Shown piece after piece: positions 16,472-43,102 of a stretch of 64,000 bases of DNA. Where the stretch lies: assembly GCA_015233195.1 (NCBI GenBank), contig JADFYE010000001.1, positions 83,583 through 147,582 on the forward strand, given 5' to 3'. The translations under genes and the position numbers were made by a program. The stretch is from Candidatus Omnitrophota bacterium. Its GTDB lineage: Bacteria; Omnitrophota; Gorgyraeia; Zapsychrales; Zapsychraceae. The notes beneath the pieces are model-generated. The model was not told the DNA's origin. It saw nothing but the letters and a program-made list of their open reading frames with translations, and did not search any database. The first letter of the stretch is position 1. Every line of letters starts with the position of its first letter.

Positions 16472-18377
16472 TGAAATTTCCCGCCCAGATCCGGACGCAT
16501 TATTGAAATTGACCGATGATGCTGAAAACAAGCGCGGTAAGTTGACGATCTTTTTCGGCGCTGCGCCGGGCGTTGGAAAAACTTATGCCATGCTTCAGGA
16601 AGCGCAGAATCAAAAAAAAGAAGGCGTTGATATTGTGGTCGGTTATGTTGAGCCGCATAAACGCAAGGACACTGAAGATTTGCTGCAGGGGTTATCTCTG
16701 GTACCGGTTCTGAAAGTTAATTATAAAGATCTTCAATTGGCTGAAACTGATGTTGACGCTATTATCCGCCGCCGTCCTAAAATTGTTCTGGTAGATGAAT
16801 TGGCTCATACCAATGCTCCAGGGTCAAGGCATGATAAGCGTTATCAAGATGTCGAAGAGATTTTGCAGGCAGGAGTTGATGTTTATACCACATTTAATGT
16901 CCAGCATTTGGAAAGCTTGAATGATGTGGTGTTTGGTATTACTGGTATTCATGTAAAAGAAACTGTGCCGGATAAAGTGTTTTTTGAAGCGGATGAGGTA
17001 AAAATTATTGATTTGCCTCCTAATGCTTTGCTAAAACGATTGTCTGAAGGAAAAGTTTATTTAGGCGAGATGGCTCAGCGCGCGGTCGAGAAATTTTTTA
17101 CTGCCGGAAACTTGACTGCTTTACGCGAGTTGGCATTACGCTGCATAGCTACCCGGGTTGATAAAGATGTGGACGTTTATAGAAAACTTAAAGCGGTTAG
17201 AGAACCTTGGCCAGTAGCGGATAAAATTTTAGTTTGTTTATTTTCCAGCCCTTCGGCTGAACATCTGGTACGTTCTGCATTCAGATTCGCTTCAGAACTT
17301 AATGCCCGCTGGGTTGCTTTGCACGTTGCCACAGAAAATGACATAGCTATGACTGAGCAGGAAAAACTGTGGCTTAACAAAGCTTCGGATTTGGCTAAGG
17401 AGCTGGGTGCTGAGATGGTTTCTATTAAAGGTATTAATGCCGCTAATGAAATTATACGGTTTGCGCAGGATCATAATATTACTAAGATTGTTTTGGGCAA
17501 GCCTAACCATCTTAGAAATAGTTTATTTTTTGCGTGGAAAATGATTAAAGAGACCAGAGGTATTGATATATTTTGGTTTTCGCATGAATTTAAAAAAGGG
17601 GTTTTCTTCGAGAAAAGTAAATTGAATCAGTGGAGCGGCGTTTTATTTGGTATCTTTTGGGTAGGCGCTGCAGCGATCGGCGGACATTTCCTCAGGGATT
17701 ATTTGAGTGAAACGAATATGTTGTTTTTGATGCTTTTGCCGGTTGTGGTGGTGGCATTGAAGTTCAACCGCAGGTCAGCGATTGCTTCCTCGGCGTTTAG
17801 TGTGATCTTGTTTGATTATCTTTTTGTCAAACCGTATTACACTTTTGCGATTTCAGATTTTCAATATTTTCTTTCTTTTGTGGCTTTTGCCGCAATTGCT
17901 TTTGGTTTGAGCAGTTTGGCTTCGCAGTTGAGGTTTCAGATCCGGGCATTAAGATTTAGTGAGGCTCAGAGCGCCGCGCTTTATAATGTTACCAGCGACT
18001 TGCTGGTGGCACGGACAGTAGATCAGATCGTAGAGGTTATGTTAAATAATATTCGCAGAATATTACCGTGTGAAGCTGGTGTTTTTATTTTTGAAGAGGG
18101 GCGGGGTATAATCGCGCAAAAACGGAGTCCGGGTTTTATTTTTGATGATAAAGAAGAAGCTGTGGTTTTATGGGTTCAAAAAAATGCTCAGCCTGCTGGA
18201 CCTGGAACCAAGACTTTACGTGAAGCTAAAGCTATTTATTTACCGGTAAGTCGTGAGAAATATGTTGAGTGTGTGATTGGTATTAAATTACTTCAAGGCG
18301 GCGCATTGACTACGGAGCAACAGACCTTGTTAGGGGCTGTAGGCAGGGTTGGAATTTTTGTTTTGAAAAAGGTGTAG
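16464..18377 (+). CDS. kdpD: KdpD-like sensor lacking the histidine-kinase transmitter (KdpD N-domain + USP + 4 TM + GAF-like)
   Basis: 'GKLTIFFGAAPGVGKTYAM' is the KdpD N-terminal P-loop. A USP-like region, four TM helices and a GAF-like C-terminus follow. The ORF ends at 637 aa with no H-box or HATPase motifs. Confidence 0.8.
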   Translation: MNDEISRPDPDALLKLTDDAENKRGKLTIFFGAAPGVGKTYAMLQEAQNQKKEGVDIVVGYVEPHKRKDTEDLLQGLSLVPVLKVNYKDLQLAETDVDAIIRRRPKIVLVDELAHTNAPGSRHDKRYQDVEEILQAGVDVYTTFNVQHLESLNDVVFGITGIHVKETVPDKVFFEADEVKIIDLPPNALLKRLSEGKVYLGEMAQRAVEKFFTAGNLTALRELALRCIATRVDKDVDVYRKLKAVREPWPVADKILVCLFSSPSAEHLVRSAFRFASELNARWVALHVATENDIAMTEQEKLWLNKASDLAKELGAEMVSIKGINAANEIIRFAQDHNITKIVLGKPNHLRNSLFFAWKMIKETRGIDIFWFSHEFKKGVFFEKSKLNQWSGVLFGIFWVGAAAIGGHFLRDYLSETNMLFLMLLPVVVVALKFNRRSAIASSAFSVILFDYLFVKPYYTFAISDFQYFLSFVAFAAIAFGLSSLASQLRFQIRALRFSEAQSAALYNVTSDLLVARTVDQIVEVMLNNIRRILPCEAGVFIFEEGRGIIAQKRSPGFIFDDKEEAVVLWVQKNAQPAGPGTKTLREAKAIYLPVSREKYVECVIGIKLLQGGALTTEQQTLLGAVGRVGIFVLKKV

Positions 18378-21249: not shown

Positions 21250-21981
21250 ATGTCTAAAATTTTGGTAAGCCCGATTGCGTATAATGAAAATGTTAAATTA
21301 GAAAAAGTTATAACACGTTATTTAGGCAGTCCGGCAAAGGGATTTACTGATTATTTGGTAATGGATGATTGTTCAGACGACGGCACAACTGAAATGATCG
21401 CGTCCTACGCTAACATGGGGGTTAAAACTTTGCGCCATGAAAAGCGTTCTGGTGTCGGCGCAGCGATAAGAACCGTGATTAGATTTGCACAGAAGAATAA
21501 TTATGATGTGTTGGTGATCATGGCTGGGAATGATAAGGACGATCCGAATCAGATACCGCTTTTGGTCAGCCCGATCGTGGATCAGGGATATGATTTTGTA
21601 CAAGGGTCGCGTTATAAAGGCGCGAATGGTATAGGCGGAGATATGCCGTTTTACCGTAAATTAGCTACACGTTTGCATCCGTTTTTGATGAGTTTGATAA
21701 CCGGCGTAAAAGTAACTGATACGACCAATGGGTTCAGGGCGTTTAAGGTATCAATTTTGAAAGATTCTCGGATTGATCTCGACCAAGAGTGGTTAGATAA
21801 ATATGAATTGGAACCATATTTGCTTTTTAAGACTTTAAAATATGGTTATAAATTTACAGAAGCGCCAGTTACTAAGATTTATCCGCCTAAGAAATTGGGT
21901 TATACAAAAATGAAGCCGTTTTCTGGGTGGTGGAGTATTTTAAGACCGCTTATATATTTAGGTTTGGGTATAAAAAAATAG
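21250..21981 (+). CDS. family 2 glycosyltransferase
   Basis: GT-A features 'VMDDCSDDGT' and 'DFVQGSR'. The ATG at 21250 is preferred over the overlapping GTG at 21238. Confidence 0.8.
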   Translation: MSKILVSPIAYNENVKLEKVITRYLGSPAKGFTDYLVMDDCSDDGTTEMIASYANMGVKTLRHEKRSGVGAAIRTVIRFAQKNNYDVLVIMAGNDKDDPNQIPLLVSPIVDQGYDFVQGSRYKGANGIGGDMPFYRKLATRLHPFLMSLITGVKVTDTTNGFRAFKVSILKDSRIDLDQEWLDKYELEPYLLFKTLKYGYKFTEAPVTKIYPPKKLGYTKMKPFSGWWSILRPLIYLGLGIKK

Positions 21982-22013
21982 CCCCGTAAAATCGCGGTGC
22001 GATCACGGGGTTT
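21982..22013 (+). terminator. GC-rich hairpin with T-run (terminator-like)
   Basis: CCCCGT-aaa-ATCGC-ggt-GCGAT-c-ACGGGG followed by TTT. Confidence 0.5.
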
Positions 22014-22029
22014 ATAAGAAAGGGTAAAT

Positions 22030-23034: not shown

Positions 23035-23620
23035 AAATAAAAAACCTGACTTCAAGAGCGCGGTTAATTTTTTTGCTGAAGCTGGATTATTGAAGCATGT
23101 AAAACGCAGCGGGTGGTGGGTTGCGGGAATTAAAGACCCTGAAAGTGTAGCTGAACATTGTTTTAGATGCGCGGTCATGGGTTATTATATTGCACAGCTC
23201 GAGGGAGTTGATCCGTATAAAGTTTTGCTTATGACATTGTTCAATGATATTCATGAAGCGCGGATAAATGATTTGCATAAAATGGGTCATTTTTATATTG
23301 ATTTTAAAGAAGCTGAGAAAAAAGTGTTCGCTGACCAGATTAAACCTTTGGATGAAAAAGTTAATAGCGAAATGGCAGGTATACGGAGAGATTACGATGG
23401 GCAATTAACAGCTGAAGCTATAGTAGCCAGAGACGCGGACATATTAGAATGTCTTTTACAGGCGCGTGAATATTTTGATAATGGACATACTAAAGCTAAG
23501 AAATTTTTTAAAGTCGCGCCAGATCATTTAAAGACTAAAACCGCGAAGAGTTTATGGGAAACTATGAAGGATTGGGATAGCGGTGAGTGGTGGGAAAACG
23601 TAGTAAAATTTGAAAGATAA
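22988..23620 (+). CDS. HD-domain phosphohydrolase (YfbR-like 5'-deoxynucleotidase family)
   Basis: 'ESVAEHCFR' followed by 'NDIHEARINDL' shows the H...HD...D pattern. Confidence 0.75.
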   Translation: MLMKSPDKNVKDKKSKNKKPDFKSAVNFFAEAGLLKHVKRSGWWVAGIKDPESVAEHCFRCAVMGYYIAQLEGVDPYKVLLMTLFNDIHEARINDLHKMGHFYIDFKEAEKKVFADQIKPLDEKVNSEMAGIRRDYDGQLTAEAIVARDADILECLLQAREYFDNGHTKAKKFFKVAPDHLKTKTAKSLWETMKDWDSGEWWENVVKFER

Positions 23621-23680
23621 CCGGCTCCGCAGATGCGGGATCGGTGCTGTGTGGCGCCGATCCCGCATCTGCGGAGCCGG
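23621..23680. repeat. perfect 24-bp GC-rich inverted repeat (hairpin)
   Basis: CCGGCTCCGCAGATGCGGGATCGG-(12 nt)-CCGATCCCGCATCTGCGGAGCCGG. I verified the complementarity by hand. Confidence 0.9.
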
Positions 23681-23727
23681 TTAAAAAGTATGAATAAGCG
23701 TTAAATTTTATTGAGGTTAATGTTAAA

Positions 23728-28373: not shown

Positions 28374-29044
28374 TGGATCCGCTTTTAATATGGGGACTGG
28401 GTTTAATGGGTTTGATTATGGCTGCCATAATTTTTATATATTTGGTGCCTGAACAGAAAAAGAGCAAAAAGAAGCGGCAGACCAAACCAAAAGAAGAAGT
28501 ATTATCAGTTGAGCAAAAAGATTGGAAAGAGGCATGTTTAAAATTAGAAAAACATATTGCAGCGCTGCGTCAGGAAAGTGTGCAGATTCAGAAAGAAGTT
28601 GCGGTAAAAGATAAGCAGATTTTGATAGAGCAGGCAAAATATAAAAAATTGGATGAACGGCTGGAGCAAGAGAGAGTTTGGCATAAAAAAGAAGAGCAGG
28701 AAATTGATAAGCGTAAAAATGAATTGCAGAAATTAAAAGATGATTTAAGCAAGCTTCAGGAAGTTTCGGCTCGCGAGCATGGGCAGAACATACGCATGGA
28801 AAAAGAATTGGTGGAAGTGCGTCGGGTTAATGCTGAAGGGGAAGAGTCTCGCCGTAAAATTGATACAGAAAATATGCAGTTAAAAGCACAGATTGAAGGA
28901 TATAAAACTCAGTTGGCTGATTTAAAAAGACAGAATTCTGATTTGGCTCGTCAGCGTGAGGATACAGAGTGGGTGTCGAAGGTTGATTATCTGGAATTAC
29001 AGAAGCAATTGAAAGAATTGAAATTAAAACTTAATAGTGAGTGA
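28373..29044 (+). CDS. membrane-anchored coiled-coil protein
   Basis: An N-terminal TM helix is followed by a Lys-rich stretch, then a long heptad-like E/K/Q-rich sequence. Confidence 0.5.
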   Translation: MDPLLIWGLGLMGLIMAAIIFIYLVPEQKKSKKKRQTKPKEEVLSVEQKDWKEACLKLEKHIAALRQESVQIQKEVAVKDKQILIEQAKYKKLDERLEQERVWHKKEEQEIDKRKNELQKLKDDLSKLQEVSAREHGQNIRMEKELVEVRRVNAEGEESRRKIDTENMQLKAQIEGYKTQLADLKRQNSDLARQREDTEWVSKVDYLELQKQLKELKLKLNSE

Positions 29045-29057
29045 CGTTAGATAAAAA

Positions 29058-29230
29058 GCAAATTTTTGGCTAAAGTCTTAAGTATTTAGCGGAACGCTGG
29101 TTAGTCCCTGCGAGCCTAACTGTGCTCGAAGATAATTCTCGCTCTCGTACGATAAAACTGTACGAGCCGTGCCCGCTCGAATTATCTAACGTCCGCTTAA
29201 ATACTTGCGACTTTTCTTTAAAAAATTTGC
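29058..29230 (+). repeat. copy 1 of a ~175-nt structured intergenic element (candidate ncRNA or MITE)
   Basis: A second copy lies at 51085-51260. Terminal inverted repeats are GCAAATTTTT/AAAAATTTGC. Internal hairpins show compensatory differences between the copies. Confidence 0.8.
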
Positions 29231-29270
29231 TTATATAGCTCTAATTGTTGTCTTTTGAAAAGGATTAGAA

Positions 29271-30561: not shown

Positions 30562-33500
30562 ATGATACTGAATATTATTCCCAAATTTATTTTACGCAGG
30601 ATAATTGCGGCGATTGTTTTGACTGCATTCGTAGCCACGAGTGTAATTTCTCCTGCAGTCGCGCAAACAGCTTTGAGCTTACCAGCCGCAGGTTCACAGA
30701 TTAGTTTAAGCCCAGCATTTACCCCAACGTTACTTACCGGGGTGAAAATATTCCCTGAAAATCCGTTTAAGTTGGAATTTATTTTAAATAAAAGCCCTGA
30801 ACCACGTGGGGTTCAGGGTGCGCCCTTTGAACCGGGTCTGGTTCAGGGTGATAATAATGATCCCCTCTCCAGCCTCCGGGGAGAGGGTCAGGGTGAGGGG
30901 AAACAGGAAGATATAAAAAAAGAAGCCAATCGTTTAATCAAATATTTTTTAGCTTCTGTAACTGTCCCGGAAAAAGACCTTTGGGTAAACCTTTCGCCTG
31001 TTGAAAAAAATTGCATCACAACTGAAGCATTTGGTCAGACCGAAATGGGTCGCGATTTGCTGGCGCAAGACTATATTCTCAAACAAATCACTGCATCATT
31101 GCTTAATCCTGACAATGAAACCGGTCGGAAGTTTTGGGAATCGATATATTCGAAAGTATACCTTCCCCCCAACAAGAATACTGGGGTGGGGAAGGGCAGG
31201 GTAGGGGGGCAAGACTTTGATATCTCAACAGATATCTTGAGCAAAGTCTGGATCGTCCCTGCAAAAGCGGTGGTGTATGAGGGGAAAGATAGCGCGTACG
31301 TAGTGGAATCAAAATTAAAAGTGCTTTTGGAAGAAGACTACAATGTCATTCTGAGGAACGAAGTGACGAAGAATCTAAAAAAAGATCCTTCCCCTTCGCA
31401 AACTCAGGGTCAGGATGACGCAAAGTTAAATATGCAATTAATGCGTCAAATCATCATCCCTGCCCTAGAGCGCGAAGTTAACGAAGGCAAGAATTTCGCT
31501 CAGCTTCGACAGATTTACAACTCTCTCATCCTCGCCACATGGTACAAAGATAAAGTAAAATCAAGCATATTTGGCAAAGCCTACATTGACCAAAAGAAAA
31601 CCGGCGGCATCAACATCTCCGATAAAAACGAAAAAGAAAAAATTTGGGCGCAGTACGTTGAGATATTTAAAAAAGGCGCGTACAACAATATCAAAGAAGA
31701 ATATGACCCTGCCACGCAGCAGATCATAGCAAAAAAATATTTCTCCGGCGGAGCAGGACTGAATGAAATCAAAGAAAATGGCGCTTATAGCAAGACAACG
31801 GATAAAGCTAAGCAACCTAAAGGTATTTTGGACAGCGCGATGGTTGTTAAGGTTACGCTCGATCCTGCTATGAAATCCGAAGACGCTGCTATGCCAGCTG
31901 ACAAGATCATTCCTATGACCTGGCAGCAGGCTGTTGAAGAATTACGGAAAGTTCCTGTTGTGCGGTCAACAGCGAAAAAGTGGATCGCGGTCATGGCATT
32001 TAATAATAAAGGGGAAGTATTGTTACGGCATAAAGTACTAGATGATTCCAATTTAAATGATTGGATGCATAAAGACCTTATTACAGATCCAGAATTTCAA
32101 CGTAAAAATGAAGTTAGCGTTGATTGGGTTTCGGTTGTGTTCGATTATAAGAATGGGAAAGTGGGAGATATTATTATTGATGCACCAGCTTTGTCAAATC
32201 AAAGGCAAGGACATACAGATGGAATATTGAAATTCAAAGGTCTTTTGCGCGACGAGTTACCGCAAAATTGGCAGATACAGCCTGGACGGGATCATATTCA
32301 GCGATATAAAGTCATGTTAAAAAATGATGTGATCCGTGCGGCGCGTCTTATGTGTGATGCTTGGCAGCCTATTGATCCGCTTATTGGAGAAACAAATACC
32401 AAAGCTTTATATGATGTAAACCTTGGGGAACAAGAAAGGTCATTAAAACAAATCGCAGCAGAATCATTGACAGAGGATTTTGCGATGCTGGCAGACGCGG
32501 AAACATTGGAAATTTCTTCTGGTCAGGATTTAGGGTGGGAATTACAAAAATTTCTTAAAATAAATCCGAATTTAATCTTAGAGAATAAGCGGCAGGGGCT
32601 TAAATATAAAATTCAGCGACGATTAGGAGACGCGGAGCATCTTGGAGTTTATCAAGCTTTACGATTTTCTGAACAAGAACCACAAGGTAAGATGGTAGCT
32701 TTAAAAATATATCACGCGCCGTTTATGTATTATGTTGAGATTCAGGAAATAGCCGACTTTTTTAAAGCCATTAAAGACGATCCGCAAGCAATTGAGTTTT
32801 TTGCAAAACCAACAGAAAAATTAGCAGTCAGTATGGCGCAATGGGAAAATTATCATTTGCTGGATATGGATTTTGTAGAGGGCACACCTTTAAGTCATAT
32901 TACTGATAAAGAAAAAAGGCTTAAAATAATTTTAGATTTTATTGAGAAGTTAGCGCACATTCATAGAACATATAAAGCATTTCATGGAGATTTAAATGAA
33001 AATAATGTTATGGTTCATCCTGATGGTAGTCCGGTAGTTATAGATTGGGATTTTTTAAGAATTGCAGATGACCGGGACAGCATCGAGCAGATTAAGTTTT
33101 CAATGAAGTATAAAGATATTTTTTCTGTTGGTTCTATGCTTTTACAGACTTTTGTACCGTCAGCAGAAGTGTTGGAATCTCCAAATGTGTTTACTGGTGA
33201 TCTTTGGCAGACTGATGTTGACATCAGCGCAACAACCCCAACTGAAATAAAAGGAGCTGACGGTATTGTGCCCGAAGGAATATTAAAAATAATCAAAAAA
33301 GCCATGTTGTGTACGCCGAGTGATCATTATGAATCACTGGATCAATTATTGAATGATTTAAGAAATGAGCTAGGTGTAGCGAAGAATACTTATAGTAATG
33401 GCACCAGTCCAATATTTACTAATAAACAACAAATAATAGATTTCTTACAGCAGTTTCCTTTTGCAGAGGGGCATGTACATTTTGGAAGTTCAGTTCCGGA

Positions 33501-36057
33501 GGATACTTTGTGGGAATTGGCGCTTGAAAGGACTGAATTAGATTGGACGGATATAAATCAGGAATTAAATCGAGTCTTTGGTGTAACAGTTGATATTAAA
33601 GATATTTTAGATGAGGCACGTCGAGAATATGCTGTAGGTAAAGGTGAATTGATTAATATAGAAAAAATAAATAAGTTAAAGACTGAATTTTTAAGTTATT
33701 TTACATTGAAAATAACTGATAAAGTTGATTTGAGAAAATTTAGCACACTTTATGACATTTTAGGAACTTTAACGCGAGGGCCATCTGCGTTGGTTGAAAG
33801 AATATCAAAACAGATTGCGTTAAAAAATTATGTAAATGGAGTAAAAGTTTTAATTCAAAGAGCTACTTTGCCTAAAGGACATAATGAAATAGATGTGTAT
33901 TTTAAAACGCGGGATAAATTATACGCGATCAAGCGGGGTTTTGAAAGCGCTGAACAAGAGGTTAATTCAAAATTAAAAAGTGGTGAGGTTGGTCTTCAAA
34001 CTAAATTGGTAGTTACTATTGGAAGATCATCGAATGTAGATGTGCTGCTTATGCAAACTAAGGCTTTATTACGGGTATTGGCAGATTATAAAGATTTACG
34101 AGAGTTTGTAGTTGGATTTGATGTGGCAGGAGAAGAAAGTTTAAAATCGCCGACTGAATTGATTCCGGTGTTTGATTTGATCGATCAATATAATCATCAA
34201 AGGCAATTGAAACAAGAAGAGGTTTTAGCCATAACTTATCACGTAGGAGAAGACTTTAAGCATGTTTCAGTTGAGAGCAGTATTCGTAACGCGGATGAAG
34301 TTATTGAATTGGGAACGCGTGGGATCGGTCATGGTTTGGTGCTGGGACTTGATCCTCAAAGATTTTTGGGCAAAACTAAAAAAGAACACATTAGTGAACG
34401 GCTTACTCAAATATATTATGATCTTAAGAATAAAAAGTTTTTCAAGAAAGAATTAGCTGCTGTTGGTTTGGTTATTGATGAAACTGTACTTTGGGAGGAG
34501 CTGAAAGCATTTCCAGATGAAAATGAATACATTAAAAAACAAATTTTGCCGCTGATGGAGAAAATTTTAACGGCATCAGCGCTGGATATAAAGTCTGAAA
34601 AGAAACTTTATGCTCGGTTGAATAAAATGAAACAATTATTTAGGCACAAAACTGTTTCAACGTTATATGAAACGCAGGAGAGCATTAAAGTGTTAAGACA
34701 AAGGCAAAGGTTTGTTTTAAATAAAGCGATTGAAAGACAGGTGATTATAGAAGTTAATCCATCGGTTAATGTTCTTATCGGTCCAATTGAGGAATATAGA
34801 GAGCATCCTCTACCTAATTTGCTTAGATATGAATATACTGGAGCCAAGGCGGAATTTAAAGGCCAGCGGCCGCTGGTATCGATTAATACGGATAATCAAA
34901 CAATTTTGGGTATAGATTTGATTCATGAATATCTGCAAATGATATTAACATTTGGTTTGACGCATGACGACGTGAAACAAATCATTTTAAACGGAATTAA
35001 ATATAGATTAGGTGGGTTTCCATTAAAGTATGCTGAACAAATCCGTGCAGTATTTGAGGCTATGGGGGTGAGTGTAGATATTGATCAGGCTATGGCAGTA
35101 AAAAGCAGACCAGGTCAATATGCCAATTTTACTGATTTTTCAAAGCGCGCGATTTTAGGTCCTCTCCCAGACGGGAAAGGTAGTAGCATTACGGCTCAGG
35201 AGATTATTGAAAGAGAGTTGCCGGCAGCTTTATATACGGTTAAAAATTTGATTCGTCTGAGAATATGGATGGATGAGAATGGATATGCCGATCGACCGGT
35301 TGTTATTTGGCAGAATTTAAGTTTGGGGGAATATTATCCTTATTTTACTGAGGATATTAAGCGTCACATGGGCGTAGTTGATTATCTTGAAGAAGGTATT
35401 ACGAAAAAAAATATTATGCGATTAAAGAATGCCAGGTTTATTTTGATTAAAGCCAAAATGAGTTCAGAATTCGCTAACATTAGTGAGGAGTATGAAAAGT
35501 TTATGTATTTATCGTCTAGAATCAAAGCTCCGATAGTGATGATTGACCACAGTAATGGTATTTTTTCAAAAGCGCAAATACAAATTAAATTAAACGAGGA
35601 GAGCGCGAAGCGTGAGGTATTGTCTTTGGGCGTTAAGGATGATAAGGATTTAGATAAGTATGCAAGTTTATTTAGGCAAGAAAATTTGTTTGTTTTATTA
35701 AATCCGAATTTAAAACCAATTGCTCGTGACGGGATATCATCGTTTGATGATCCAGGCGGTAACTTAGTTTCAGAAGTTACGATTAATAGCGAAAGAATGA
35801 AAGCTTTAAAGGCATTGAAAGTGTTATTAGGATATGCTGTAGAAAATAACTTGAAATTAAATGACACAGACGAAAAGGGCGGGATTGATTTAACTCGCGA
35901 TAAAATGAATATCGAGGTTAAAGGGGCACAGGATAGTGTTAAATTTAAAGTGGATCAAGCCATGTTGCAACAATTGCAAAATTCTTCAGGTTTAATGCCA
36001 GTAGTGGTTGATGTCCATCCGCTTACAACGACGATTGAAGTTTATTTGAATAATTAA
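30562..36057 (+). CDS. giant exported mosaic protein: signal peptide + conserved N module + kinase-like domain + adenosine/AMP-deaminase-like domain + conserved C-terminal 'GGIDL' module
   Basis: Uninterrupted 1,831-codon ORF. The signal reads 'RRIIAAIVLTAFVATSVISPAVAQT'. Kinase motifs are 'VALK' (K715) and 'HGDLNENN' (H808-D810, nt 32983), followed by 'VIDWD'. Deaminase motifs are 'GHVHFGSS' (H971/H973, nt 33472), 'YHVGED' (H1227/E1230, nt 34240), 'GIGHG' (H1257, nt 34330) and 'SINTDNQ' (D1444, nt 34891). Confidence 0.85.
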   Translation: MILNIIPKFILRRIIAAIVLTAFVATSVISPAVAQTALSLPAAGSQISLSPAFTPTLLTGVKIFPENPFKLEFILNKSPEPRGVQGAPFEPGLVQGDNNDPLSSLRGEGQGEGKQEDIKKEANRLIKYFLASVTVPEKDLWVNLSPVEKNCITTEAFGQTEMGRDLLAQDYILKQITASLLNPDNETGRKFWESIYSKVYLPPNKNTGVGKGRVGGQDFDISTDILSKVWIVPAKAVVYEGKDSAYVVESKLKVLLEEDYNVILRNEVTKNLKKDPSPSQTQGQDDAKLNMQLMRQIIIPALEREVNEGKNFAQLRQIYNSLILATWYKDKVKSSIFGKAYIDQKKTGGINISDKNEKEKIWAQYVEIFKKGAYNNIKEEYDPATQQIIAKKYFSGGAGLNEIKENGAYSKTTDKAKQPKGILDSAMVVKVTLDPAMKSEDAAMPADKIIPMTWQQAVEELRKVPVVRSTAKKWIAVMAFNNKGEVLLRHKVLDDSNLNDWMHKDLITDPEFQRKNEVSVDWVSVVFDYKNGKVGDIIIDAPALSNQRQGHTDGILKFKGLLRDELPQNWQIQPGRDHIQRYKVMLKNDVIRAARLMCDAWQPIDPLIGETNTKALYDVNLGEQERSLKQIAAESLTEDFAMLADAETLEISSGQDLGWELQKFLKINPNLILENKRQGLKYKIQRRLGDAEHLGVYQALRFSEQEPQGKMVALKIYHAPFMYYVEIQEIADFFKAIKDDPQAIEFFAKPTEKLAVSMAQWENYHLLDMDFVEGTPLSHITDKEKRLKIILDFIEKLAHIHRTYKAFHGDLNENNVMVHPDGSPVVIDWDFLRIADDRDSIEQIKFSMKYKDIFSVGSMLLQTFVPSAEVLESPNVFTGDLWQTDVDISATTPTEIKGADGIVPEGILKIIKKAMLCTPSDHYESLDQLLNDLRNELGVAKNTYSNGTSPIFTNKQQIIDFLQQFPFAEGHVHFGSSVPEDTLWELALERTELDWTDINQELNRVFGVTVDIKDILDEARREYAVGKGELINIEKINKLKTEFLSYFTLKITDKVDLRKFSTLYDILGTLTRGPSALVERISKQIALKNYVNGVKVLIQRATLPKGHNEIDVYFKTRDKLYAIKRGFESAEQEVNSKLKSGEVGLQTKLVVTIGRSSNVDVLLMQTKALLRVLADYKDLREFVVGFDVAGEESLKSPTELIPVFDLIDQYNHQRQLKQEEVLAITYHVGEDFKHVSVESSIRNADEVIELGTRGIGHGLVLGLDPQRFLGKTKKEHISERLTQIYYDLKNKKFFKKELAAVGLVIDETVLWEELKAFPDENEYIKKQILPLMEKILTASALDIKSEKKLYARLNKMKQLFRHKTVSTLYETQESIKVLRQRQRFVLNKAIERQVIIEVNPSVNVLIGPIEEYREHPLPNLLRYEYTGAKAEFKGQRPLVSINTDNQTILGIDLIHEYLQMILTFGLTHDDVKQIILNGIKYRLGGFPLKYAEQIRAVFEAMGVSVDIDQAMAVKSRPGQYANFTDFSKRAILGPLPDGKGSSITAQEIIERELPAALYTVKNLIRLRIWMDENGYADRPVVIWQNLSLGEYYPYFTEDIKRHMGVVDYLEEGITKKNIMRLKNARFILIKAKMSSEFANISEEYEKFMYLSSRIKAPIVMIDHSNGIFSKAQIQIKLNEESAKREVLSLGVKDDKDLDKYASLFRQENLFVLLNPNLKPIARDGISSFDDPGGNLVSEVTINSERMKALKALKVLLGYAVENNLKLNDTDEKGGIDLTRDKMNIEVKGAQDSVKFKVDQAMLQQLQNSSGLMPVVVDVHPLTTTIEVYLNN

Positions 36058-37676
36058 TTATTAAGTAAACTTTTCTGCACTAAAAGTTTTTTCTCACCTA
36101 TAGGGATCACTTTATATCCATATTTTTCCGGATCAGCTAGAAATTCGTGAAATTGGGTGTCAGCTCTGAATCGGGAATATTCGAGCAAAGGAGGGGACAC
36201 AACTATCATGTTGAGATTTTGTCTTTTTGAAAAATCCCAGTATTTCTCGTCTGGTTGTTTTGAGTATTCAGGATATGAGCAGTAGTTATTATCAAGGTAA
36301 ATATTTAAACTGCCTTCAGCTTCTAATAAATTGACGGGCGCTTTAATATGTAAATCATCTATAGCGCGGATAATTTGTTCAGTAGGTTTAGGAATACTTT
36401 TAGTTTTATTATAAAAAAAGAAACAGCTGGGCGTAATGATAAATAAGATTAATGCTGGAATCATAATTTGTTTTAGGGAATGATTTTTAGTGCTTTCTTT
36501 TGGGTTTAATAAAATGCATAAAAGCAGGATTAACATTATCCCGGTGAATAATATGTAGTGCGTGCGGGGAAAGATAACTAATACAGATATGAGTGAAGTT
36601 AACAGATAAATTGAAATGAAAAAAATTGGACGTAAATTAGTTTTGAAGTTTTGTTTTATTGGGATTTGTTTGTTTTTTAATAAGACAAATAAATATAGAA
36701 AAATTGCTGATATTAACATATATGCTTCCGCGTAAATATAAACTAGCGGCGGCAGTAGAATGTTGGTGTGCAGCATAAAGCATTTGAACATTTGGTTGCA
36801 AGTGCGAGGGATATTCGCGAGCACGTGTTTTATAAATAGTATTGGGTTGTTTAACAGCGCTTCTTTTACAGTGGTAGCTGTTCCAAAATTTATTTGCATT
36901 ATTTCATTCCAATTAGTCATGGGGTTCAGCGTTGAATGGGTCCATCTGACCCAGTTGACACCAAAAGAAGGACCAAAGGCACAAAACCCGCGGTCTCCGT
37001 TTTGGAAATGGAATGGCATACCACGGAATATTTTAATGGCACATAGGGAAGTAATAATTACCGCACCGAGAATAATATAGTCTTTTATTTTTAAATTTTT
37101 TATTTTAAACAGAAAGGATAACAGGTAAATACCGAAGAAAATTAAAAAAGTTAAAAATAATTCTGGTCGGATGTATGCGCCTACCAGCGCTCCGATAGTT
37201 GCTATTGCTATACTTGAAGTGAAGGTTTTAGGTTTTTGCGCAAGTGCTAGGGATATTAGTATGCTGATAGTAGCAAAATGATAAACTTTAGTGAACACGT
37301 CGAGATTTACTTTGGCTATAAGCATAAAAAATGTAATGATGGCTGAATTTAAAATAGGGATTTTGTAAGCGCGAAGGGTTACATACAGAATTAAGGGCAA
37401 TAAAATGGTTAGTATTTGCTGGTTTAAATAATATAACGCAAATTTTTGGGGTGTTATTAAAGATAATAAAAAATACCAGATCGAATATATAGGACCTACT
37501 TGAGCTCCGGTTATGCCGGATTTAAGAAAATTTACACCGCCGGATAAATATGAGCTTTCATCGAACAGGGTGATATCCATAAAGTTTGGCATGCCATAAG
37601 TGAATTTTAAGGCGCATAAAAATAACGCGAAAAACATTATCAGGTCAAAATGGGCAGATAAAAATTTTTTAAACAT
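36054..37676 (-). CDS. polytopic membrane protein, probable GT-C-type glycosyltransferase with C-terminal soluble domain
   Basis: At least 10 TM helices. The first extracytoplasmic loop contains 'LFDESSY', an acidic motif like those of PMT/ArnT-type enzymes. It lies immediately downstream, on the minus strand, of a polyprenyl-phosphate-GT-like GT2 gene. Confidence 0.5.
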   Translation of the reverse strand: MFKKFLSAHFDLIMFFALFLCALKFTYGMPNFMDITLFDESSYLSGGVNFLKSGITGAQVGPIYSIWYFLLSLITPQKFALYYLNQQILTILLPLILYVTLRAYKIPILNSAIITFFMLIAKVNLDVFTKVYHFATISILISLALAQKPKTFTSSIAIATIGALVGAYIRPELFLTFLIFFGIYLLSFLFKIKNLKIKDYIILGAVIITSLCAIKIFRGMPFHFQNGDRGFCAFGPSFGVNWVRWTHSTLNPMTNWNEIMQINFGTATTVKEALLNNPILFIKHVLANIPRTCNQMFKCFMLHTNILLPPLVYIYAEAYMLISAIFLYLFVLLKNKQIPIKQNFKTNLRPIFFISIYLLTSLISVLVIFPRTHYILFTGIMLILLLCILLNPKESTKNHSLKQIMIPALILFIITPSCFFFYNKTKSIPKPTEQIIRAIDDLHIKAPVNLLEAEGSLNIYLDNNYCSYPEYSKQPDEKYWDFSKRQNLNMIVVSPPLLEYSRFRADTQFHEFLADPEKYGYKVIPIGEKKLLVQKSLLNN

Positions 37677-37694
37677 GGGTATTTCTCCGGAATA

Positions 37695-38420
37695 TTATTT
37701 TTTAAGCCAATGTTTTTTTAATGCGAAAATATACCATTTGATATATCTGGGCAGCCATTGAGCTAACTTGAAATTTGATTTACCTGCAGTGCGGTCTTGC
37801 CAGGTGGTAGGGATCTCGGCAATTTTAAATCCTTTAAAGTGGGCTTTAATGGTTATTTCCATTCCTAATTCAAAGCCGCCGTTACTTTCAATAGTAATAG
37901 CTTTTAAGACTTGAGGCGAATACATTTTAAAGCTATTGGTTATATCGTGGGTAGGCAGACCAGCTAAATAATGTAAAGAAACTCCGGCTACGCGGGATAA
38001 GGTTTTTTTAAACCAGGGACCACCAATCTGTTTGCCGCCTTTCATGTAACGGGAACCGCAGACCAGGTCAAAGTCGCTATTAAGTAATTCTAACATTTTG
38101 TCAACTTTGCAAAGGTCATCTGAGAGGTCAGCCATAGTAACTAAAGCCGGATTTTCCCCAGAGGATTCAAGACCGGTTTTAATAGCGTTTAAAGCTCCAC
38201 GACCGTATTTATTTTGCATTAATAGTATGTTAGTCGCCTTAGTATTTTTTATATATTCAGTAACTTTGGGGATAGTGGTATCTTGCGGAGTATCGTAGAC
38301 GATAAGTACAGTGTTTGGTACAAGGATTAATTCTTTGATTTTGTCCAGCGTCGATTTAATGACGTCGCTTTCATTATAAACCGGGATAACAATGGTTAAA
38401 TGCTCAAATTTCATTGTCAC
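37695..38420 (-). CDS. family 2 glycosyltransferase (ArnC/DPM1-like polyprenyl-phosphate glycosyltransferase)
   Basis: 'LTIVIPVYNE', 'LIVYDTPQDTT' and 'MADLSDD' mark a GT-A fold of about 240 aa, typical of the Dpm1/ArnC/GtrB group. Confidence 0.78.
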   Translation of the reverse strand: MTMKFEHLTIVIPVYNESDVIKSTLDKIKELILVPNTVLIVYDTPQDTTIPKVTEYIKNTKATNILLMQNKYGRGALNAIKTGLESSGENPALVTMADLSDDLCKVDKMLELLNSDFDLVCGSRYMKGGKQIGGPWFKKTLSRVAGVSLHYLAGLPTHDITNSFKMYSPQVLKAITIESNGGFELGMEITIKAHFKGFKIAEIPTTWQDRTAGKSNFKLAQWLPRYIKWYIFALKKHWLKK

Positions 38421-38425
38421 GTTTT

Positions 38426-39445
38426 TCAGATTCCTCCCAACTTAATCTGTTCTCTAATCCAGGGGATGATTTCATCTAACGCTGTATCGAGCGAGGTGTT
38501 AGCTTCGAATCTAAGTATATCTTTGGCTTTTTGTACGTTAGGAACTCGTTTTTGTACGTCGTACTGGAACGGTTTATCGGTTGTGTATTTAAATGGTTTA
38601 TTCGGATTTATTTTTTTCCAAATTGTTTCTGCAAGTTCAAGTACGGTAGTTGAGATAGGCGTGGATAAGTTAAAATCATTGTTAATAGCTTTAGGGTTTT
38701 CTATGCAAAGCCGGATGCCTTTAGCTAAATCACCGCCGTAAGTGTAATGACGGATTTGCCCACCATCGCCTAAAATATGCAGAGGGTCTTGACCTTTTAA
38801 AATCTTTTGGACTAAGTCAGGTACTACGTGGCTCATTGCCAGTTTTACATTGCCGGACATGATCTCTTTATCAGTTAACGCGCGTTTCTCGCCTGTTCCT
38901 ATACAATTAAAAGGTCGGATTATGGTGTAAGGTAATTTATATTGTTCCCACGCGCCTTTGGCAAAATATTCACAGGATAATTTTTGAAAGCCATAAGTAG
39001 AGAGCGGAGGAGGACATTTTAGCTGTTCTCCCTCAGGCGTGGGGAATATGTCGGTTGATTCAAAAACCATGGAAGAAGACATCACGTTGATTTTTTTTAA
39101 TTGTTTATTTTTAAATGCCCATAATGCCGCGTCAAAAGTGGCAGCAGTAATGCGTTCGTTTTCTGCTAATAGGTCATAAGCGAATTCGTGGAATAAAGAG
39201 ATGCCGCCGATGATCGCGGCACAGGCTAAGACCTGATCGCAGTCAGCGATAAGCGCTTTCATTAAAGGCAGGTCTTTGGCATCGCCTTCAACCAGACGGT
39301 AATTAGGGTTAAGGTCATAACTCTTTTCTACTTTGCCGTATTTGGAAAAATTATCGATACCGACTACATGATGACCATGACTTAATAATTCTTCAATTAA
39401 ATATCCGGCAATAAATCCGCTGGAACCTGTAACTAATATTTTCAT
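38426..39445 (-). CDS. NAD-dependent epimerase/dehydratase (extended SDR)
   Basis: 'ILVTGSSGFIAGYL' is the Rossmann motif. 'YGFQK' supplies the catalytic YxxxK. Confidence 0.85.
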   Translation of the reverse strand: MKILVTGSSGFIAGYLIEELLSHGHHVVGIDNFSKYGKVEKSYDLNPNYRLVEGDAKDLPLMKALIADCDQVLACAAIIGGISLFHEFAYDLLAENERITAATFDAALWAFKNKQLKKINVMSSSMVFESTDIFPTPEGEQLKCPPPLSTYGFQKLSCEYFAKGAWEQYKLPYTIIRPFNCIGTGEKRALTDKEIMSGNVKLAMSHVVPDLVQKILKGQDPLHILGDGGQIRHYTYGGDLAKGIRLCIENPKAINNDFNLSTPISTTVLELAETIWKKINPNKPFKYTTDKPFQYDVQKRVPNVQKAKDILRFEANTSLDTALDEIIPWIREQIKLGGI

Positions 39446-40638
39446 AATATTTTCCCGCCTTTATTATAAAAGTTCCAAATGTCGACTAAGTGAATATGCT
39501 CGGGGATTTTTAATTCAGAGTATTCTTTGTGTGGTGTGCCAACTATAAGTATGTCGCATTTTTTTAGAAGCTCATCAGTAGTTACAAAATCAGCATCTTT
39601 TATGTAAACGTCATGGCACAATACTTGAGCAGCTTCGACAGTCAAGATTTTTTTAAGTTTGTAGGATAATGATTCGCGTTTATCGTCTATGTTAGCTTTA
39701 AAAGCCATGCCTAAAATTCCGACGGTCTTAGTTTTTAGGTCAATCTTGGATTGAAGCTGGCTAATTACAAAATTAGGCAAGCCTTCATTAAGCAGCATAG
39801 CAGAATGCCCTAAAAAGAAATTGTTATTGCTGAAAGAAGAGAGCTGCATAGTGTCTTTAAATAAACAAGGACCAGCCGCAAACCCGGCTTTGGGGAACGC
39901 TTTTGCCCGAGGATAATTAAAAGTAAGGGCATCGTAAATTTTATAAAAATCCAAGTTGTGACTCGCGGCTAATTGATAGAACTGGTTAGCAGTAGCGAAC
40001 ATTATGTAGCGCCAGGAATTGGTAAATAATTTTGCCAGTTCAGCTTCAGGCGGAGTCAGGCGTAATACATCTTTAGTCAGATGTTTGAATAATTTTTCAG
40101 CCTCTTCAAATGAGGTTTCATCAAAAGCGGAAATTATTTGGGGAAGGGTTCGTAATTCTTCCATGCCTTTGCCTTCAGCTAAACGTTCCGGACAAAAGGA
40201 TAAACGCACATTTTTATTATGTTTTTTTAAATAAGCACAAACGTTTTCAGTAGTACCGGGATAAACTGTACTGCGTAAGACGATATGCTGCCCGTCAACA
40301 ATGTCTTGCATTAATCCGTCGAAGAAATCTAAAAATATGCGGTATTGCGGATTTAAGTATTCATCGACCGGAGTACCAATCACTACGACTACATAATGGG
40401 CTTGGCGGATGACATTTTTATCGTTTGAAACAAAGAAGGTGTTATTTAAGACTTTTGCCAGCACCTCATCAGCGCCTTGTTCCATAAACGGTATTTTTCC
40501 TGCGGATATAGTCTGGACAGCTTTTTCATTAATGTCATAAGCTGCGACTTTCATTCCAGTTTGAGCGAGGGATATCCCAAGAGGTAAGCCAATGTGACCC
40601 AGCCCGCCGATAACACAAACATCGTAAGCATTTGCCAT
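39442..40638 (-). CDS. nucleotide-sugar dehydrogenase (UDP-glucose/GDP-mannose dehydrogenase family)
   Basis: The N-terminus reads 'VCVIGGLGHIGLPLG'. The catalytic Cys lies in 'AAGPCLFKD'. Confidence 0.85.
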   Translation of the reverse strand: MANAYDVCVIGGLGHIGLPLGISLAQTGMKVAAYDINEKAVQTISAGKIPFMEQGADEVLAKVLNNTFFVSNDKNVIRQAHYVVVVIGTPVDEYLNPQYRIFLDFFDGLMQDIVDGQHIVLRSTVYPGTTENVCAYLKKHNKNVRLSFCPERLAEGKGMEELRTLPQIISAFDETSFEEAEKLFKHLTKDVLRLTPPEAELAKLFTNSWRYIMFATANQFYQLAASHNLDFYKIYDALTFNYPRAKAFPKAGFAAGPCLFKDTMQLSSFSNNNFFLGHSAMLLNEGLPNFVISQLQSKIDLKTKTVGILGMAFKANIDDKRESLSYKLKKILTVEAAQVLCHDVYIKDADFVTTDELLKKCDILIVGTPHKEYSELKIPEHIHLVDIWNFYNKGGKIL

Positions 40639-40798
40639 AAATATTCCTGTTTATCCGATTAAAATAAAAAAACTATTGAACTATCCCTATATTAATAACA
40701 AACAGAGATTTTGCAATTTATATTTGTGATTTGCTTTTATGATTAAGGACGTGGCATACTTTAGAATCAATAACAATAATACTATTTATATTAAATCT

Positions 40799-43102
40799 AT
40801 GCGTTTAAAACACTTATATATATTGCGTAAAAGTGTTACGTCAATTGTTCTATTCGCTTTCCTATTAACAAATGGGTTTGCTCATGTCTGTTCTGCGCAA
40901 AATGTTGTTACGCAAATAACTTTAAGTCCGGCATTTACACCCTCGCTTCTTACTGGTGTGAAAGTTTTTCCTGAAGATCCGTTTAAGTTGGAGTTTATTG
41001 TTAATAAAGGTCCAGTAAAATCGCTTCGCGATCACGGGGTTGATGATAGTCATTCTGAGGCTTTAGCCGAAGAATCTAAAAAATTAATCAAATATTTCCT
41101 CGCTTCAGTTACTATCCCAGAAAATGATCTTTGGGTTAATCTCTCGCCTACAGAAAAAAATCGGATTACAACAGAAGCATTTGGTCAAACTGAAATGGGG
41201 CGAGACTTACTCGCGCAGGATTACATCCTTAAACAAATCACATCAGCACTACTTAATCCTGATAATGAAACAGGTCGGAAATTTTGGAATGAAATTTATA
41301 GTAAAAGTTATAACGTAGGGGCACGACATGTCGTGCCCGAAATTCCAACAGATATCTTGAGTAAAGTTTGGATCGTCCCAGCAAAGGCAGTGGTTTATGA
41401 AGGGAAAGATAGCGCGTATGTTGTGGAGAGTAAATTGAAAGTGCTTTTGGAAACTGATTATTTTACGATGCAAAAAATGAAAAATTCCAAAAGCATCCCG
41501 AGGACACAGGACGAGGGAGTACCACAAAAAGATCCTTCACCTTCGCAAGCTCAGGCTCAGGATGACGCAAAGTTAAATATGCAATTAATGCGTCATATCA
41601 TTGTCCCCGTACTTGAAAAAGAAGTTAACGAAGGCAAGAATTTTGCACAACTGCGTCAGGTCTATAACTCACTCATCCTTGCAACCTGGTACAAGAAAAA
41701 AATAAAAGATAGTATATTTAACGCGTATATCGACCAGAAAAAAATCGCTGGCGTTGACATTTCGGACAAATCCGAAAAAGAAAAAATTTGGGCACAGTAC
41801 GTTGAAACATTTAAAAGAGGCGCATATAATTATGTCAAAGAAGAATACGACCCTAACGCTCAACAGATAATTGCAAAAAAATATTTTTCAGGTGGGGTAC
41901 AAATTAATGGGCGTTATAAAAAAGCTGAACGCGCGCAACTCGCCGCTAAAAAATCAGACGGAGCAATGATAGTTCGCGTTTTTTTGGATCCAGAGCAAAC
42001 TCAAGAAATTATTCAGATTAAAGATGGAATAGATCTTCGGAAGGTTGTAAAAGAAGCTTTTGTGAAAAATCCTAATATTGTTTTAGAAATACCAGGACAT
42101 AATATTCGATATGAAAATTTGCAAAGTTTAGGATTTGGAGGGTTTGGAAATGTTTATGCGGCTACGAGAAGGTCTGCGGATATGCATGACGGTAAAAGAG
42201 TGGCGATTAAAACATATGAAAGTGTAGGATGGTTTAGCTCGAAAACTGAAGTTTTTAGGGAATTTTTAAATGTAAGGAGTGGCGATGTTGCTGCTAAAAA
42301 CTTTTTTGTTGGTGTGACAGATTTTCGGGATGCAGCCAATGGCGACAGTTTAGATGTATGGAAAAATTATGGTTTGTTGGATATGGATTATATTGAAGGT
42401 ACGCGATTTTTTGAATTAAAAGATAAACAGCAGAAAATCAGAATTTTATTATATGTAATTGAGCAAATGGCAGGTTTTTTTAGAGAATATGGCGTTGTTC
42501 ATGGTGATTTACGAGCGAATAATATTTTGATCAAATCTGACGGCTATCCAATTGGAATTGATTGGGATTCGTTGTATATGTATAACGATTTGATGGATCG
42601 GTTTAAGTTTGTAAAAAGAGATATTAATACAGTTGGAACAATGCTTTTACATGTATTTGATCCTAAAGCAACTCTTCATTTAGTTACTGATCCCAAGTCG
42701 ACAACTAAAGGTTTAATCGTACAAATTAGTGGAGGCGAAAACATTCCTCCTGGAATAAAAAAAATTATTAAAAAGGCGGTATTTTGCAGAGAAGATAATC
42801 GTTTTGAATCTTTAGAAGATTTGTTGATTGATTTAAAAGCAGCTTTAGCAGAAGAAATGCCGGAGATTTTTACGAATAATAATTTACACGACGGTGATCA
42901 GGCGATGAAACACACTGGGGGTATTGATTTAACCGGAGATAAAATGGCTGTTCAGGTTGAGGGGACTGGTGATGGCATTCAGTTCAAGTTCGATCAAGCT
43001 ATGATCGCTAAAATTCAAAACGCTTCAGGACTTGCGCCTGTCATTATTGATATTAGGAACATGAATATAAGCCTGCTGCAGTTTTTAGGAGTTAATGAAT
43101 AA
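40799..43102 (+). CDS. exported paralogue of the giant protein: signal peptide + N module + Hanks-type kinase-like domain + C-terminal 'GGIDL' module (no deaminase)
   Basis: The signal reads 'SIVLFAFLLTNGFAHVCSAQN'. The N module aligns with 30562-36057 along about 360 aa. The kinase has a G-loop 'GFGGFGNVY' (nt 42131), 'VAIK' (nt 42200), 'HGDLRANN' (nt 42500) and 'GIDWD'. The ATG at 40799 is preferred over the track start at 40739. Confidence 0.82.
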   Translation: MRLKHLYILRKSVTSIVLFAFLLTNGFAHVCSAQNVVTQITLSPAFTPSLLTGVKVFPEDPFKLEFIVNKGPVKSLRDHGVDDSHSEALAEESKKLIKYFLASVTIPENDLWVNLSPTEKNRITTEAFGQTEMGRDLLAQDYILKQITSALLNPDNETGRKFWNEIYSKSYNVGARHVVPEIPTDILSKVWIVPAKAVVYEGKDSAYVVESKLKVLLETDYFTMQKMKNSKSIPRTQDEGVPQKDPSPSQAQAQDDAKLNMQLMRHIIVPVLEKEVNEGKNFAQLRQVYNSLILATWYKKKIKDSIFNAYIDQKKIAGVDISDKSEKEKIWAQYVETFKRGAYNYVKEEYDPNAQQIIAKKYFSGGVQINGRYKKAERAQLAAKKSDGAMIVRVFLDPEQTQEIIQIKDGIDLRKVVKEAFVKNPNIVLEIPGHNIRYENLQSLGFGGFGNVYAATRRSADMHDGKRVAIKTYESVGWFSSKTEVFREFLNVRSGDVAAKNFFVGVTDFRDAANGDSLDVWKNYGLLDMDYIEGTRFFELKDKQQKIRILLYVIEQMAGFFREYGVVHGDLRANNILIKSDGYPIGIDWDSLYMYNDLMDRFKFVKRDINTVGTMLLHVFDPKATLHLVTDPKSTTKGLIVQISGGENIPPGIKKIIKKAVFCREDNRFESLEDLLIDLKAALAEEMPEIFTNNNLHDGDQAMKHTGGIDLTGDKMAVQVEGTGDGIQFKFDQAMIAKIQNASGLAPVIIDIRNMNISLLQFLGVNE

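Follow-up and report, generated by a model that had tools for sequence, protein, structure and literature searches.

The question raised by this locus is what kind of element occupies two separate intergenic regions of one Candidatus Omnitrophota genome, just behind a stop codon in each case, and in which form, RNA or DNA, it acts. Omnitrophota is an uncultivated, widespread phylum of very small cells, whose non-coding RNAs are almost uncharted. In the window, which here means the whole 64-kb stretch of DNA that was analysed, copy 1 occupies positions 29056-29232 (177 nt) and copy 2 positions 51084-51261 (178 nt), both on the + strand, and the two are 79% identical over 174 nt (BLASTN, E 1e-38). 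Copy 1 starts 11 nt past the TGA stop (29042-29044) of a gene for a 223-aa coiled-coil protein and ends 38 nt before the ATG (29271) of an aminotransferase gene, while copy 2 starts 3 nt past the TAA stop (51078-51080) of pgeF (Cu-oxidase_4) and ends 164 nt before the ATG (51426) of cutA; all these flanking genes lie on the + strand. The initial annotation had described two collinear + strand copies between + strand genes, with which the coordinates and BLASTN agree, and the bounds given here are the best ones. The two dispersed copies lie within 22 kb, and neither BLASTN nor nhmmer nor an unfiltered covariance-model search showed a third one in the 64-kb window. A coding reading of the element was ruled out, as it has no conserved frame.

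In either copy, a long outer stem leads to a hairpin H1 and to an inner stem (AGATAATTC/GAATTATCT) inside which a hairpin H2 lies, at minimum free energies (MFE) of −62.6 kcal/mol for copy 1 and −56.9 kcal/mol for copy 2 (z = −6.1 and −6.4), and none of 200 dinucleotide shuffles was as stable as the native window copies. The three-way-junction fold proposed earlier for both copies is thus reproduced by MFE folds that lie far below those of shuffled sequences. When the MFE fold of copy 1 is mapped onto copy 2, 45 pairs are unchanged, 7 are compensated, 1 is a wobble and about 9 are broken; two of the seven compensated pairs sit in the flanks just outside the homologous core, and the substitution rate in this fold is 19% at paired positions and 28% at unpaired ones. 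Under a random-substitution null, at least five compensated pairs arose in 0.56% of trials and at least seven in 0.009%, so the two sequences alone show a moderate excess of compensation. RNAalifold on the copy pair gave 53 pairs, 8 of them changed on both sides, and it bears out the paired changes that had been named earlier for H2, H1 and the outer stem. The broader statement that the copies differ mainly by compensated pairs does not hold, since about 14 of the 39 substitutions fall in the seven compensated pairs, 15 fall at unpaired positions, and about 9 pairs are broken. Likewise, some of the nearly invariant stretches that had been read as single-stranded are paired in part, since they contain strands of the inner stem and of P3/P2b.

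A more distant relative of the element came from other Omnitrophota loci, which were gathered to polarise the pgeF-cutA junction and then searched with R1, a covariance model derived solely from the window copies (210 bits on copy 1, 217 bits on copy 2). R1 gave a full-length match (38.1 bits, E 1e-8) at positions 5353-5502 of locus L051 (assembly GCA_001805375.1), with an identical sequence at 2711-2860 of L052; in the 58 kb searched, nothing beyond these two loci rose above hairpin noise. Both loci were fetched via PgeF P0129, a protein named Omnitrophica WOR_2 GWA2_47_8. The GWA2_47_8 copy begins 1 base past the pgeF TAA, at the same junction as window copy 2, and the PgeF proteins of the window and of GWA2_47_8 are 43% identical. 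The GC content of this copy is 59%, against 38-42% in the window copies, and its sequence alone folds into the same architecture. Its downstream gene, with a start codon 249 nt away, encodes a 2450-aa transketolase/PDH-E1-like protein. The distance from stop codon to element is therefore 11 nt in copy 1, 3 nt in copy 2 and 1 nt in GWA2_47_8, and all three copies share the orientation of their flanking genes.

The three sequences, which come from two genomes and two of which are 79% alike, were aligned by hand, fitted to the structure helix by helix with gaps written as N to keep the register, because MAFFT failed on the GC-rich copy. In this hand alignment (n = 3) six helices comprise 58 pairs, 98.1% of the 155 cells are standard pairs, and 31 of the 58 pairs are changed on both sides. 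None of 500 column shuffles attained any of the five measures, and in a control in which the 3' partners were slid by 1-3 columns, pairing was 26-48% with at most 8 double changes. RNAalifold on the three-sequence alignment returned the same helices with 33 compensated pairs, as well as an alternative junction, where H1 continues into 43-46/72-76 and ACGUCC faces the CG of GCUCG instead of that of GAACG. On the + strand, the six helices hold no G-U pairs. Between the window and GWA2_47_8, identity is 32-42% in paired columns versus 66-70% in junction and internal-loop columns; by helix it is 11% in P5, 14-40% in H1, 17-20% in H2 and 32-46% in P1, so that these four have been almost fully replaced (11-46%). 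The strands between the helices are kept across lineages, namely GAACGCU-G, GCUCG, CUC, CCGnGCCC, ACGUCC and UGnGA, and some 45 bases of the loops and junctions have been retained. Helices that are rewritten and still complementary, together with conserved loop bases, indicate that a single-stranded fold is under selection, which excludes chance, a double-stranded operator and a plain MITE dependent on its terminal inverted repeats. The earlier inference of selection on a three-way-junction structure thus gains strength from the covariation of all helices in a distant homologue, and the element shows both helix covariation across diverged members (n = 3, hand-made alignment) and conserved unpaired junction and loop nucleotides, as is typical of a conserved structured RNA family.

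The helices can be followed along copy 1 on the + strand. The 5' strand of P1 (helix 1; 29056-29067) pairs with 29221-29232, and 8 of its 12 pairs are changed on both sides, the stem reading GCAAATTTTT/AAAAATTTGC in the window and AAACGAGCCTGA/TCAGACTCGTTT in GWA2_47_8. In P2, AAAGTC (29072-29077) pairs with GACTTT (29209-29214), followed by the conserved internal loop UUA (29078-29080) opposite UGC (29206-29208). The 5' strands of P2b and P3, AGTATTTA GCGGAACG (29081-29096), pair with 29190-29205; P2b is missing in the GWA2_47_8 copy, while P3 (GGA(A)CG/CGUCC) has kept its sequence and shows a single covarying pair. The junction strand CUG and hairpin H1 (GTTAG/CTAAC) follow at 29097-29120, where 6 of the 7 pairs of helix 4 are changed on both sides; H1 is GTTTAAT/ATTAAAC in copy 2 (51128-51148) and GAAACGA/TCGTTTC in GWA2_47_8. 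The next junction strand, J45 (TGTGCTCGA, 29121-29129), includes the invariant GCUCG and leads into an inner domain (29130-29187) composed of P5, internal loops and H2. P5 (helix 5) is formed by 29130-29138 with 29179-29187, the inner-stem strands given above, with 8 of 9 pairs changed on both sides, and its counterpart in GWA2_47_8 is GACCCGGCC/GGCC(TA)GGGTC. Inside P5 lie a 5' internal loop with the invariant CUC (29139-29144), H2 (helix 6; 29145-29165; 5 of 7 pairs changed on both sides) and a 3' internal loop, GCCGTGCCCGCTC (29166-29178), with the conserved CCGnGCCC. H2 reads TCGTAC/GTACGA or, in copy 2, TTGGACG/CGTCCAA in the window and GTCCCC/GGGGAC in GWA2_47_8. The strand J53 (AA) and the 3' strand of P3 (CGTCCGC) close the junction at 29188-29196, with ACGUCC invariant. 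In copy 2, also on the + strand, the inner domain spans 51158-51216, with P5 at 51158-51166 and 51208-51216, H2 at 51173-51194 and the conserved 3' internal loop, ACCGTGCCCACTC, at 51195-51207. The left flank of copy 1, GACGTTAGATAA (29043-29054, + strand), which overlaps the upstream stop codon, is a perfect reverse complement of the conserved TTATCTAACGTC (29182-29193). At an equal offset, copy 2 has 7 of 12 matches and the GWA2_47_8 copy none; this 12-nt complementarity therefore probably lies outside the family core, and it was dropped as a family feature, not being common to the other copies.

Searches for further relatives covered several kinds of data. Rfam 15, run over the whole window at gathering thresholds, returned tRNA alone, and both window copies and the GWA2_47_8 copy, scanned at E up to 10, gave chance matches far under gathering scores; the initial annotation had recognised no known RNA family here, and the Rfam scan, its own refuting check, gave no match. 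Its other refuting outcome, a multitude of copies with terminal inverted repeats and target-site duplications but devoid of covariation, did not arise either. R2, a second covariance model built from the three sequences (155 bits on copy 1, 154 bits on copy 2) and run with filters off, gave no further copy in loci of nine other Omnitrophota lineages (L002, L049, L053, L054, L059, L180, L182/184, L186 and L187), about 140 kb in all; viral loci totalling 0.9 Mb were likewise empty, and in the window no copy was added to the known two. In 185,579 species genomes (596 Gb), an 18-mer of the conserved 3' block had a single exact match, in a TetR-operator-like palindrome of a Deltaproteobacteria MAG, and the same 18-mer and a gapped inner-stem pattern had no matches in JGI metagenomes. 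In viral contigs, 15-mers and a three-block pattern gave chance matches only, with nhmmer E values above 0.07 and no extended motif found by regular expression. A six-frame chimeric protein query, designed for mis-called ORFs over the copies, matched nothing among 5.8 billion proteins.

The history of the two junctions could be read from relatives. The window's aminotransferase and PgeF match proteins of a Candidatus Omnitrophica MAG (MBF0483190.1, on a 166-kb contig) at 100% identity; exact look-ups of window proteins returned no record. The closest relative of the source genome (JADFYJ010000015, GCA_015233115.1, locus L002; aminotransferase 71% and PgeF 67% identical) is syntenic with the window and lacks the element at both places: 11 nt separate its pgeF and cutA, and an AAA_14 gene lies between its coiled-coil and aminotransferase genes. 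Five lineages (L002, L049, L054, L059 and L186) have pgeF and cutA 0-19 nt apart, and three (L180, L182 and L187) have 0-20 nt between the coiled-coil and aminotransferase genes. The gene order is largely common (Hpt, TPR, coiled-coil, aminotransferase, deaminase, cellulase, SpoU, pseudouridine synthase, ABC-F, RmuC, PgeF and CutA), except that ABC-F and RmuC are separated by a few genes that vary. Such compact junctions in relatives suggest that both window copies, and the entire pgeF-cutA spacer of 347 nt, are derived insertions. The element thus behaves as an insertion, and mobility might be the cause of its distribution; for the pgeF junction, the alternative is a repeated precise loss of the element. 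No direct repeat that could be a target-site duplication abuts the ends of any of the three copies, and the two additional pairs in the flanks (AA/TT and CG/CG) are in inverted rather than direct orientation. The termini pair in each copy (11-12 bp), yet the P1 sequence is only 32-46% identical between lineages. As a separate observation, an insertion of some 8 kb in GWA2_47_8, which includes the 2450-aa gene, has the element at its 5' edge; there is a parallel in the window, where a 12.5-kb block bearing an 1831-aa gene has been inserted one gene past copy 1.

With regard to the strand, the signals are split, in that thermodynamics slightly favours the − strand and gene orientation the + strand. 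The reverse strand folds better by 1.5-6.7 kcal/mol in all three copies (− versus + strand: −63.1 versus −61.6 in copy 1, −60.8 versus −55.6 in copy 2 and −79.1 versus −72.4 kcal/mol in GWA2_47_8), and the RNAalifold consensus of the two window copies is −51.5 on the − strand versus −41.6 on the + strand. C.A mismatches of the + strand become G-U pairs on the − strand, and the conserved unpaired bases are pyrimidine-rich on the + strand and purine-rich on the − strand. Scans found no promoter or terminator common to both copies, the promoter scan being empty at copy 2, and no intrinsic terminator on the + strand at either copy. The P1 of the window copies is A/U-rich. By eye, U-rich runs are seen on the − strand past P1 in copy 1 and GWA2_47_8, and a promoter-like site, TTCAAA-16-TATATA, lies right of copy 1.

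The reading that we favour, to which we give about an even chance of being right, is that the element is a new structured RNA family carried on operon transcripts just past stop codons, which works through a tertiary fold or a partner and can come to occupy new junctions. The Omnitrophota family, of about 150-178 nt, would consist of a closing stem built from P1, P2, an optional P2b and P3, leading to a three-way junction that bears H1 and a second arm, in which P5 is followed by a large conserved internal loop and H2. The element would be transcribed within the operon mRNA, as a 3' UTR or an intercistronic segment, and would act as RNA by means of a specific tertiary fold or a bound partner. 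It might serve as a processing, stability or termination module, or possibly as a small self-cleaving ribozyme-like unit, and it may have spread to new junctions via duplication or insertion instead of by vertical descent at one locus. In a bolder form, which we regard as rather improbable, the element would be a new catalytic or partner-binding RNA class dispersed by insertion, either a self-cleaving or processing ribozyme or the RNA component of a so far uncharacterised system that is guided by RNA or recognises it, and would land behind stop codons; ribosomes terminating upstream would then unwind the closing stem and couple folding to translation.

The favoured RNA family competes with the view that the element is a non-autonomous mobile DNA (MITE- or PATE-like), folded as single-stranded DNA and recognised by a trans-acting transposase or HUH enzyme, with the loop bases as the recognition site and the RNA fold as a by-product. 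We consider this unlikely, yet it deserves serious weight. The insertion behaviour at otherwise compact, syntenic junctions speaks for it, as do the size below 200 bp, the two copies within 22 kb and the inverted repeat that each genome shows at the termini; the occupation of the pgeF 3' end in two distant lineages suggests a target preference. Strictly Watson-Crick helices without G-U pairs are unusual for RNA, and both strands fold. Compensatory changes that keep an RNA structure have a precedent in a mobile element, the bcr1 MITE of Bacillus (PMC3184786). However, no target-site duplication flanks any of the three copies, and the termini, which are exactly what transposase-dependent MITEs conserve, are the part that differs between lineages (P1 32-46%). 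Moreover, none of the 59 window proteins scanned against Pfam is a transposase, a reverse transcriptase or an HUH protein, the copy number is low where measurable, and six helices with a three-way junction are far more elaborate than known single-stranded transposon ends. Among the three options put forward by the initial annotation, the Correia/ERIC-like MITE has become the least likely for related reasons, as the termini are unconserved, target-site duplications are lacking and the conserved bases are internal.

Other readings keep the element as a nucleic acid signal of another kind. An independent small-RNA gene transcribed from the − strand, antisense to the host operons, appears quite improbable: it would accord with the lower energy of that strand in all three copies and in the two-copy consensus, with the C.A mismatches turned into G-U pairs, with purine-rich conserved unpaired bases and with the U-rich runs and promoter-like site seen by eye, but the energy differences are small, the promoter scan found no shared site and nothing at copy 2, the alternative junction pairing adds U-G and U-A pairs on the + strand, and a start 1-11 nt past a + strand stop codon better fits a + strand role. 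Conserved junction and loop bases among freely varying helices are also the typical signature of an aptamer, and a gene lies downstream of the element in every case, as a riboswitch or 5' leader controlling that gene would require; such a role is nevertheless very improbable, because the genes downstream bear no relation to one another (an alanine-type aminotransferase, cutA and the 2450-aa transketolase/PDH-E1-like protein), their start codons lie at varying distances (38, 164 and 249 nt), no terminator or platform for sequestering a ribosome-binding site was found, the 11-12 bp P1 with P2/P3 makes a closing stem too stable for a switching helix, and the orthologous genes of other sampled relatives lack the element. 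As for a double-stranded operator cluster for a TetR-like regulator, it was suggested by locus L001, where three palindromes of the form AATTATCTAACG-YCCGCT-CGTTAGATAATT surround a TetR gene and have GAATTATCTAACGTCCGCT in common with the element, with a 19-nt identity to it. It is scarcely credible: a single 18-mer match in 596 Gb is within chance expectation, helix covariation would be meaningless for a double-stranded site, no TetR homologue occurs in the window, and the matching stretch (the 3' strand of P5) is completely different in the GWA2_47_8 copy, which effectively refutes this reading.

Although only three sequences underlie it, the proposed structured RNA-like family of this uncultivated phylum has a good chance of being new. 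A motif of six helices and about 45 conserved bases that survived both the rewriting of its helices and a GC shift from 38-42% to 59% would imply a specific fold with a specific job, and its insertion-like behaviour by stop codons fits none of the usual MITE, riboswitch or sRNA categories. In addition, the element is small enough for synthesis and direct tests, and the covariance model can be used to chart the family across genomes.

Compared with known systems, the element shares with the bcr1, ERIC and Correia MITEs a size below 200 bp, an intergenic position, ends that pair in a long stem, and presence or absence at syntenic junctions; these MITEs also often lie within operons and are co-transcribed. 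The Correia target-site duplication is TA. What defines MITEs of this kind is a conserved terminal inverted repeat together with a target-site duplication, whereas the Omnitrophota element shows no duplication and its termini differ between lineages; such MITEs are confined to a genus or family, whereas the element spans lineages with 43% protein identity. With respect to copies, two occur in 64 kb, and the matching junctions of the sampled relatives, the closest at 67-71% protein identity, are without the element. In bcr1, the duplication is 5 bp (PMC3184786). REP and BIME sequences resemble the element in being structured repeats that follow closely on genes within operons. The mRNA upstream is stabilised by REPs, and those within about 15 nt of the stop codon, a range in which all three copies of the element begin, reportedly lower translation of the upstream gene, as Liang, Rudd and Deutscher are said to have found in 2015. 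However, REPs are simple GC-rich hairpins of 20-40 nt with a conserved GTAG-type tetranucleotide, hundreds of copies and a link to RAYT transposases, while the Omnitrophota element is a six-helix branched fold of 150-178 nt with a low copy number and no RAYT seen.

Integron attC sites are alike in lying immediately past the upstream stop codon in the same orientation, in the pairing of both ends into a long, near-Watson-Crick stem that has bulged bases and whose tip varies and may branch, and in a structure that is more conserved than the sequence. They were rejected, as the RYYYAAC...GTTRRRY core sites are missing at the base of the stem (they occur in reversed order in copy 1 and were not found in the others), the neighbours are syntenic housekeeping genes instead of cassettes, and no integrase was found in the window. 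An intrinsic terminator was also rejected, since the + strand scan gave no GC-rich hairpin with a U tract at either copy. Retron msr-msd, 6S RNA, Y RNA, IS110 bridge RNA and single-strand origins were set aside on the size, architecture or gene context of these families, in line with the empty Rfam search and with the lack of reverse transcriptases and transposases among the 59 window proteins scanned. The hammerhead ribozyme was excluded as well, its CUGANGA/GAAA core being missing (CUGYGA only, with no conserved GAAA and no Rfam match). Among orphan RNA motifs and small ribozymes (twister-sister, hatchet, pistol and the Weinberg/Breaker sets), the element is larger than the known small ribozymes and is matched by no Rfam model. 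It is like them in its conserved junctions and loops, its covarying helices and its multi-stem junction, as well as in a sporadic distribution, the possibility of several copies per genome and the absence of a consistent gene association.

The window carries a 12.5-kb block (30562-43102) in the interval that separates the aminotransferase gene from the dCMP deaminase gene; the syntenic Omnitrophota relative L002 and the further Omnitrophota loci L182 and L187 lack it there. The block encodes an 1831-aa protein with RIO/kinase-like and adenosine-deaminase domains, as well as a 787-aa protein, which is its kinase-like paralogue (77-85% identity across the first ~1.1 kb).

Both paralogous ORFs contain a short hairpin repeat. 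A second repeat of the form CCCCTCTCCAGCC..GGGGAGAGGGT.AGGGTGAGGGG, which can form a hairpin, is found in the pgeF-cutA spacer (51313-51355), 52 nt beyond copy 2 of the branched ~177-nt element, and again within the 1831-aa ORF (30857-30900), where it is in frame and translated as ...SSLRGEGQGEG.... The hairpin AGCCCCGTAAAATCGCGGTGCGATCACGGGGTT makes up a third repeat: one copy is intergenic (21974-22015), and the other (41003-41044) lies in frame within the 787-aa ORF, at the exact position occupied by the GEGQGEG repeat in the paralogous 1831-aa ORF. This position appears to be a hotspot at which repeats are inserted in frame.

Short octamer repeats of the GTACTCTG type are also present in the window immediately ahead of the cutA ribosome-binding site (51380-51408). 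In L002 (the 71% relative), arrays of AGTAACCG/GTTACTCG octamers, arranged as inverted pairs (1370-1431, 1624-1650, 11203-11272, 11415-11454), bracket ~200-nt spacers upstream of two genes. L002 additionally has intergenic repeats of its own at 17716-18012, namely three 49-nt units in tandem together with the inverted repeats GTTGTAGGGGCGATC.../...GATCGCCCCTACGAC, and none is found at the corresponding place in the window. Downstream of the distant copy of the element in Omnitrophica WOR_2 GWA2_47_8 (locus L052), a long hairpin GGCGATGGGT...ACCCATCGCC (2890-2975) is followed by a 2450-aa gene (3109-10461) with transketolase/PDH-E1-like domains, which is inserted between pgeF and cutA.

The strongest simple hairpin within the window is a near-perfect palindrome at 23618-23683, with 30-nt arms that are 97% complementary and 67% GC; a + strand gene flanks it on either side, and it is a possible terminator. 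Elsewhere, at 59595-60125, a tRNA (60 bits) directly precedes the gene for a four-helix-bundle protein of the 23S-rRNA-intervening-sequence type.

In the Deltaproteobacteria MAG locus L001, a TetR-family gene is surrounded by three AATTATCTAACG-YCCGCT-CGTTAGATAATT palindromes (1396-1427, 1554-1570 and 2271-2288), which look like operators of that gene. These palindromes have 19 nt in common with the 3' block of the element, and this sharing was judged to be due to chance.
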